Origin: an uncultured archaeon
GTDB taxonomy: Archaea; Asgardarchaeota; Lokiarchaeia; Sigyniarchaeales; SOKP01
Direction: 5' to 3'
Length of the DNA: 64,000 nt
Assembly: GCA_964388035.1 (NCBI GenBank)
Contig: CAYLZE010000006.1
Location: 48,576 to 112,575 of the forward strand
The notes under the pieces are model-generated. The model was not told the origin of the DNA, did not search any database, and worked only from the letters and a program-made list of their open reading frames with translations. Shown piece after piece: positions 16,105-30,618 of the stretch. The position numbers and the translations under genes are program-made. Numbering within the stretch: position 1 is the first letter of the stretch; each line of letters opens with the position of its first letter.

Positions 16105-16380
16105 TCAAGCTCCTTTTCTTTCAGTTTTCGCTCTTTGAGCTACTTTGCCCGTATGGATAGCGCAACTAATGCATAAATATTTATCGCTACTACCACCCAG
16201 AATAATCGTTCCTTCTTTCTTTAATTCACGATACATTCTGCTATCAATTAAGGACGTCTTGGACGTAAATTTTTTGGCTTTACTTCGACTCACAAATCGC
16301 CCGCAATTAGCACATTGAACTTTTTGGTAATTTCCTTTACTTGAACCGGTATGTCCTCCACTCCTACGTTTCTTAGGCGT
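16105..16380 (-). CDS. rps26e: 30S ribosomal protein S26e (91 aa, ACG start)
   Basis: Extending the tracked ORF upstream gives (M)PKKRRSGGHTGSSKGNYQKVQCANCGRFVSRSKAKK...YLCISCAIH; first codon ACG, 7 nt after GGAGGT. Confidence 0.92.
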   Translation of the reverse strand, partial: TPKKRRSGGHTGSSKGNYQKVQCANCGRFVSRSKAKKFTSKTSLIDSRMYRELKKEGTIILGGSSDKYLCISCAIHTGKVAQRAKTERKGA

Positions 16381-16516
16381 ACGAATAACCTCCTTTTATA
16401 AGAATTAGTATTTTTATTAAGTTCTAGCTTATAATAATTTACTAAAACTTAAATATTTTTGTTTCCTTTCAGTTTTCTAAAAGGTCTAAAAAAGTCTCTC
16501 GATTTTAAGGAATTAA

Positions 16517-29898: not shown

Positions 29899-30618
29899 TC
29901 ATACCACTCCTACTTGTTTTTCAGTCTTTATTATTTCTGGCTTCACTGGCTTTACTCCCAATTGTTTTTCAGTCATTATCAAATCTGGTTTCGCCTTATA
30001 AATATAAAAGATTATAAGACCGGTAATGATTGCTTCTCCAATTCCAATTAGCATGTGCCAATATACCATGCTTGGAACAGCTACATTCATTGGAATGATG
30101 CCACCTAATCCAATCTCAACCCCACAAGCGAAAGCGGCAAGAACGATAGCAATATAAGATCCGATGGCACTAGCTAGAGTAACCTTTAATGGCTTGCTTA
30201 ATTTCGTCTTATTTAGTCCAACGATAATCAGTTTCACGATATAAAATCCTAAAATCCCACAAATGATCCCCATATTGAAAGTATTCGCCCCTAAGGCAGT
30301 TATACCTCCATCGCCGAATAAACTCTGCACGACTAATACTAAAAATAGGACTATAACGGCTGCCCAGGGTCCTAAAATGATGGCTACCATGGTACCCCCT
30401 ATCAAATGCCCCGAAGTTCCTCCCGGAACGGGATAATTAACAAATTGGAAAGCAAAAACAACTGCAGCTAGTACTCCAATATATGGAACCATTTTTTCGG
30501 AATCTTCTTTTTCAAACATCTTGCCGACTTTATAAAATCCCATTACAAGGACACTTATTGACACGATCCATAATACGATAAGTGTAGCGGGATCTAAAAG
30601 ACCATCTGGTATGTGCGT
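29899..30618 (-). CDS. cbiM: Ni/Co ECF transporter S component CbiM/NikM (239 aa, ACG start)
   Basis: Upstream extension gives (M)HIPDGLLD; GGTSGHLIGG and GDGGITALGAN motifs; ACG lies 6 nt after GGTGA with an in-frame TGA three codons upstream. Confidence 0.92.
   Translation of the reverse strand, partial: THIPDGLLDPATLIVLWIVSISVLVMGFYKVGKMFEKEDSEKMVPYIGVLAAVVFAFQFVNYPVPGGTSGHLIGGTMVAIILGPWAAVIVLFLVLVVQSLFGDGGITALGANTFNMGIICGILGFYIVKLIIVGLNKTKLSKPLKVTLASAIGSYIAIVLAAFACGVEIGLGGIIPMNVAVPSMVYWHMLIGIGEAIITGLIIFYIYKAKPDLIMTEKQLGVKPVKPEIIKTEKQVGVV

Follow-up and report, generated by a model that had tools for sequence, protein, structure and literature searches.

Can a ribosomal protein gene begin at ACG? 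The gene for eS26 (rps26e) raises this question in the stretch of DNA that we analysed (64 kb, hereafter the window), which comes from an uncultured archaeon of the class Lokiarchaeia. A preliminary description made from the sequence alone had reported ACG in place of the initiator codon of eS26, and had proposed that the whole lineage initiates translation at near-cognate codons guided by Shine-Dalgarno (SD) motifs. We find it highly probable that initiation in these organisms is indeed SD-guided and near-cognate, the ACG of eS26 being one case of a Lokiarchaeia habit that is strongest in the family of this genome.

An ordinary eS26 gene with a probable ACG start

We firstly reread the locus. 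On the minus strand, reading from 16398, TAA is followed by AAG GAG GTT ATT CGT, by ACG (16380-16378) and by CCT AAG AAA CGT AGG, so that ACG at the homologous Met1, GGAGGT ahead of it and the in-frame stop are all as had been claimed (Table 1). The GGAGGT core (16393-16388) leaves a spacer of 7 nt, and the duplex of this SD with the genome's own anti-SD (16S 3' end on contig C189) has a predicted energy of about -11.5 kcal/mol. The protein matches Pfam S26e (PF01283) over residues 2-89, corresponding to model positions 2-93, with 52.5 bits for a cut-off of 27. In an alignment with the solved crenarchaeal eS26 chain 9fs6_b the two Pro2 residues coincide, and the basic N-terminal PKKR and two CxxC zinc pairs are present. 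In comparison to the eS26 family (PF01283; crenarchaeal chains 9fs6_b and 9e71_BX) it is an ordinary member, which differs by its start codon alone. The GTG at 16293 sits 29 codons downstream of the ACG and beyond the first CxxC (16314-16303); starting there would cost these zinc ligands, as the preliminary description had pointed out. We also looked in the leader for an Rfam match and for a stable fold, and found neither (fold z = -0.5). The gene thus has the features of an infC-like start: it lacks an upstream canonical start, has a codon one mismatch from ATG at Met1 and is preceded by a normally spaced SD. ACG at the start position of an otherwise ordinary eS26 gene is confirmed as a real feature of this genome.

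Table 1. Features of the eS26 and cbiM loci (positions in the window)
Feature	Position	Strand	Remark
eS26 (rps26e) CDS	16105..16380	-	ACG start, 91 codons + stop
ACG, inferred start codon at homologous Met1	16378..16380	-	ortholog codons; identical base in 3 runs
Shine-Dalgarno AGGAGGT	16388..16394	-	7 nt before ACG
In-frame TAA closing the eS26 frame	16396..16398	-	6 codons upstream of ACG (5 codons between)
136-nt intergenic region upstream of eS26	16381..16516	-	ATG/GTG/TTG absent, all frames
First CxxC zinc-ligand pair of eS26	16303..16314	-	upstream of first standard start
GTG, first standard start in eS26 frame	16291..16293	-	62-aa truncated product
cbiM starting at ACG (30618-30616)	29899..30618	-	AGGTGA at 30630-30625; (M)HIPDG; Pfam CbiM from residue 2

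That the ACG is an assembly error or marks a recent null allele (pseudogene) might be suspected, since the sequence is a metagenome assembly of low depth with 7% contamination and since ACG was found in this genome alone among the 120 eS26 genes examined. However, three runs (X1, X2 and X3), each of a separate study, gave contigs in which 16378-16380 are unchanged, which excludes an assembly error. One of these runs, X1, is a possible source of the assembly; X3 represents another strain, for which 6 SNPs are listed close by, just upstream. Moreover, the gene is single-copy, its frame is intact and it shares 87% identity with the ortholog of the sister species (the closest relative, a Promethearchaeota MAG), which itself starts at ATT. 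Together with the presence of ACG at Met1 in five separate genes, this makes an error or a null allele very improbable, in agreement with the earlier remark that the ACG starts are hard to explain as errors. A pattern search of metagenomes spanning the ACG of cbiM found nothing.

Other probable near-cognate starts in the same genome

The second ACG start reported in the 64 kb, that of cbiM at 30618, also held, as the Pfam CbiM match begins at residue 2. In 30 CbiM genes the Met1 codon is ATG (24), TTG (3), ATT (1) or ATA (1), and ACG in this genome only. Five ACG starts are supported by homology, namely those of eS26, cbiM, a DHDPS-like gene on contig C1 (GTG or ATG in its orthologs) and genes on contigs C32 and C7 (ATG in the sister species); a sixth candidate, on contig C6, is more weakly supported. 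In addition, a small GTPase gene starts at CTG here, and at ATG, TTG, GTG or ATT in relatives. The SD duplexes at the ACG and CTG sites are all strong, -8 kcal/mol or better where computed. For the 13 homology-supported near-cognate starts, 2 of which were picked out via their SD, the median is -8.3 kcal/mol versus -3.75 kcal/mol for ATG starts. ACG and CTG together account for 4 of 582 orthologs in this genome and for none of 461 in the sister species (p = 0.13), so that an excess of ACG peculiar to this genome is not significant in this comparison.

On the plus strand of the window, an ABC ATPase gene has ATT ATT (31924-31929) behind GGAGGT, 5-6 codons ahead of its first GTG, and this is a third likely near-cognate start in the window. 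Elsewhere in the genome, hydrogenase- and heterodisulfide-reductase-like genes on C32 (near 4133, +) and C45 (near 2171, +) contain an in-frame TGA conserved with the sister species. These codons likely encode selenocysteine, which is known for Lokiarchaeota (PMC8211752).

SD spacing across the genome

We scanned the 4341 ORFs of this genome for 5' regions that have an SD and lack canonical starts. Compared with expectation, ATT (43 vs 22), ATA (30 vs 16), ATC (10 vs 6.4), ACG (6 vs 1.9) and CTG (3 vs 1.2) were enriched, and TTA, CTT, CTA, ACA and ACC were not. A sharp peak was observed at a spacer of 8 nt, where near-cognate codons occupy 36 of 63 slots for 9.6 expected; at canonical starts the spacer is spread over 6-9 nt. 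Set against 542 canonical SD-led starts, the near-cognate excess of about 45 suggests that some 8% of the clear-SD genes of this genome are near-cognate-started, as a rough excess-over-background estimate. An ortholog truncation test gave about 13 of 582 genes (about 2%), which is a lower bound. An earlier genome-wide SD/codon count with an out-of-frame control, in which canonical starts diluted the signal, had shown a modest ATH enrichment and no ACG signal. By the de novo scan, uS10, PCNA and an ATPase subunit are probably near-cognate-started as well.

Met1 codons across relatives

We then tabulated the codons at conserved Met1 positions across Lokiarchaeia, as the preliminary description had advised, and found a near-cognate excess made up chiefly of ATT, ATA and ATC. 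For eS26, the 30 genomes of the same family have ATG (8), TTG (5), GTG (2), ATT (10), ATA (3), ACG (1) and GTT (1), the 20 genomes of other families in the class ATG (14), GTG (1), TTG (1) and ATT (4), and the 70 genomes of other Asgard families ATG (31), TTG (30), GTG (8) and ATT (1). A near-cognate start is thus present in 15 of 30 family genomes versus 1 of 70 from other Asgard families. On a tree of 18 ribosomal proteins, with 35 scored genomes, the state of eS26 changed between canonical and near-cognate at least nine times. Near-cognate and ATG-started eS26 orthologs showed no significant difference in the strength of their SDs (p = 0.25).

In the ribosomal superoperon (19 genes), 17 of 462 slots in the family lack a canonical start, and Met1 is ATT, ATA or ATC in all 17, which belong to uS14 (8), uS3 (3), uL22 (2), eS4 (2), uL14 (1) and uL6 (1). 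Outside the family, none of 262 slots was clearly near-cognate. When eS26, CbiM, the ribosomal protein operon, aIF1, the small GTPase and the DHDPS-like gene are pooled, about 75 of 76 Met1 positions without ATG, GTG or TTG hold a codon one mismatch from ATG; the genomes are related and not independent, so p-values are overstated. At internal Met positions near-cognate codons make up only about 37% of the replacements other than GTG and TTG, TTA being as common as ATT, which indicates that the Met1 site acts as a start codon rather than as an amino-acid position. A Pro at position 2 (eS26, uS14, uS3, uL22 and two small GTPases) seems to go with more frequent non-ATG starts family-wide, and this trend could be a context effect or a detection bias.

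In a genome that we take as that of the cultured 'Ca. L. ossiferum' B35 (PMC9834061), eS26 is a single-copy gene whose in-frame stop is followed by ATT ACT ATT, with no canonical start. The claim of near-cognate initiation is therefore testable in a cultured organism.

Taken together, the proposal of lineage-wide SD-guided near-cognate initiation stands as a trait, on the ortholog tables and the SD spacing, and falls as an ACG pattern, ACG and CTG being minor. Likewise, N-termini are misannotated, as had been expected, but not by truncation alone, because NCBI entries of relatives are often extended upstream.

The initiation machinery

The anti-SD at the 16S 3' end is intact, the initiator tRNA has the canonical A1:U72 and its three G-C pairs, and the genome encodes aIF1, two copies of aIF1A and the alpha, beta and gamma subunits of aIF2. 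A low Pfam score of aIF1 had been read as the sign of a broken factor; alignment against the consensus (at least 85%) gives a single conservative difference, I to V, and the conserved residues are kept. Two further candidates in aIF1 were rejected: the Q to R substitution of the LQGD motif recurs in five other genomes of the family and shows no correspondence with ACG use, and the loop-1 Trp is common to families that rarely use near-cognate starts. No lesion accounting for permissiveness was found in the aIF1 or initiator tRNA sequences, and the suggestion of relaxed aIF1 scrutiny was thus not borne out in that form.

The start of aIF1 itself is another matter. Its position holds ATT, ATC or ATA in 30 of 30 family genomes (ATT in this genome); 24 of them have no in-frame canonical codon there and 6 have an in-frame GTG inside the SD. 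ATA also occupies the aIF1 start position in several genomes outside the family. In S. solfataricus, aIF1 rejects AUU in vitro, and the bacterial gene infC, encoding IF3, is autoregulated through its AUU start (PMC4705826). Given the family-wide AUH start, this rejection and this precedent, the simplest reading is an equivalent aIF1 loop. An infC-type loop would keep its weak codon invariant across the clade, as is seen for aIF1 and not for eS26. The comparison suggests that such a loop may set stringency, the factor still policing start codons with a lenient set point.

Several observations were made on the same components. The two aIF1A genes (C19:57262-57468 and C2:101119-101325) are probably real paralogs rather than contamination, and several relatives also have two. 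aIF2-gamma (L373:1477-3024, -, contig C112) has a helix-hairpin-helix domain (HHH_5, E = 5e-12) at its N-terminus; its N-terminal extensions are variable and often Lys-rich in relatives of the order, and absent from most sampled genomes of other orders. In relatives (L392, L396-L400, L403; G033, G019, G023, G030, G024, G004, G021) the P-loop of aIF2-gamma (GHVDH-GK) is interrupted by a frame-changing insert of 29 nt, at the same position in several genera and absent from this genome. Some copies fold with flanking CAT bulges in a bulge-helix-bulge-like manner, and the insert is a candidate for an intron of a protein-coding gene, here one for an initiation factor. Small GTPase orthologs of the MPSRRGDG type (L288, L289, L294, L298) have short frame-breaking inserts near the 5' end, at differing positions, which are possibly further introns. 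The initiator tRNA-Met(CAT), on C31, has an intron in its anticodon loop. ARAGORN gave only 22 tRNA records in the assembly, with tRNA-Thr(CGT) on C23; a 'Thr' call on C32 looks like a mis-assigned Ser.

Weighing the explanations

The codons, their homology to Met1, the lack of alternative starts and the position and strength of the SD are direct observations. From these we infer initiation at the near-cognate codons, with Met as first residue, at a lower efficiency and with the aIF1 loop described above. The SD in the eS26 mRNA leader would pair with the 16S 3' end and put the ACG into the P site, where the ordinary Met-tRNAi would accept it with one mismatch to give (M)PKKRR. The gene would be one instance of a permissive, SD-positioned initiation in Lokiarchaeia, strongest in its family, which would use chiefly AUU, AUA and AUC and occasionally ACG and CUG, in at least 2% of genes and about 8% of clear-SD genes in this genome, single-gene start codons drifting within the allowed set. 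ACG initiation is weak in E. coli and in yeast, where it reaches 0.4-0.5% of AUG (PMC4705826). For a ribosomal protein such weakness is hard to understand, except with a permissive machinery or a small demand for eS26.

Other explanations fit less well. The conversion of ACG to AUG is a classic product of C-to-U editing, and mRNA editing as in plant organelles, which the preliminary description had also raised, could repair the five ACG starts of this genome. Homologs restricted to ATG or ACG would be expected in that case; relatives instead hold ATT, ATA, ATC, CTG, TTG or GTG at these sites, ATT, ATA, TTG and GTG being common and the sister species having ATT. C-to-U changes cannot make AUG from ATT, ATA, ATC or CTG, and we therefore discard editing as a general explanation. 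The peak in SD spacing also suggests that the ribosome selects these codons, and editing seems extremely improbable. Excision of a bulge-helix-bulge intron, or a frameshift, could also bring in a canonical eS26 start that lies upstream, and intron-like inserts do occur in protein genes of relatives, for instance the 29 nt in aIF2-gamma. But ATG, GTG and TTG are absent from all frames of the 136 nt upstream of eS26, which leaves no nearby canonical start for splicing or frameshifting to bring in; with the normal SD spacing and the lack of an unusual fold, we regard this route as scarcely conceivable. It is very unlikely, too, that a cognate elongator tRNA (Thr or Ile) initiates in place of Met-tRNAi. 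A tRNA-Thr(CGU) is present, but only codons one mismatch from AUG are in use, ACA, ACC and ACT show no enrichment despite being as common in the genome as ACG, and the initiator tRNA is normal.

The near-cognate explanation could be extended by supposing that the weak start of eS26 was selected as a negative feedback, in which excess eS26 shuts off its own SD-dependent mRNA. In S. solfataricus, eS26 occupies the exit channel of the mRNA, where it competes with the SD:anti-SD duplex and excludes it; an excess abolishes the toeprint of leadered mRNA, and about 5% of purified 30S subunits carry the protein, which is thus substoichiometric (PMC11698992). A near-cognate start depending on the SD would accordingly limit eS26 synthesis. 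In favour of this extension, near-cognate codons occur in 15 of 30 family genomes for eS26 versus 17 of 462 slots of the ribosomal protein operon, and 39 of 70 other Asgard eS26 genes have a non-ATG start (TTG, GTG or ATT), mostly behind SD-like motifs, in a tally made for eS26 only. However, eS26 has returned repeatedly to ATG (8 of 30 genomes, with the changes counted above), unlike aIF1 with 30 of 30. Furthermore, a similar enrichment is seen for uS14 (8 of 26, p = 0.18) and for further genes that encode Pro at position 2 (uS3, uL22, the small GTPase), perhaps by context or detection bias. Because of the comparable uS14 and the frequent codon reversion, we rate the feedback as rather unlikely. 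A combined scheme, in which aIF1 with its invariant AUH tunes stringency and eS26 throttles its own start, the two jointly determining how SD-led and SD-independent initiation are balanced in Lokiarchaeia, we would hold to be unlikely.

Significance and relation to known systems

Reviews hold that aIF1 rejects AUU; with eS26, uS3, uS14 and aIF1 at AUH, ACG or CUG, stringency may sit much lower. The lineage is near to eukaryotes, and an autoregulation of aIF1 would parallel those of IF3 and eIF1. In practice, Asgard proteomes contain wrong N-termini, short or extended, with consequences for structure prediction, for expression constructs and for estimates of how far SDs are used. No systematic report of non-canonical starts in Asgard archaea was found in the literature searched, which leaves most subscription journals outside.

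Near-cognate initiation itself is already known, from infC and from ACG and CUG in eukaryotes. The gene pcnB is another bacterial case of an AUU start, and eukaryotic near-cognate starts mostly yield extensions or uORFs. As in bacterial infC (PMC4705826), the near-cognate start is here placed by an SD, and the gene of a fidelity factor, aIF1, begins with ATH; unlike infC, dozens of genes per genome are concerned, ACG and CTG are included, the codons turn over between species and the factors are archaeal aIF1 and aIF2. The codons and, in all probability, their reading by Met-tRNAi under the eIF1/aIF1 gatekeeper are shared with eukaryotic and viral ACG/CUG initiation (PMC4705826), which relies on scanning and Kozak context where an SD is used here; here the near-cognate codon would be the sole start of core genes. 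The one published Asgard case found is AtubA of Kariarchaeota, for which an ATT start was inferred (PMC13394414). There, too, the annotation is too short and a ribosome-binding site precedes the near-cognate start; it differs in being published as a single rare case, from another Asgard class, without a lineage survey or ACG. Finally, reviews list AUG, GUG and UUG as the only archaeal starts and describe SD motifs as not prevalent in Lokiarchaea (PMC7531240, PMC6237735). The genome studied here shares with the SD-led initiation that they describe the positioning by the SD, a canonical tRNAi and the full set of aIFs, and departs from it in that SD-dependent AUH, ACG and CUG starts form a measurable class.
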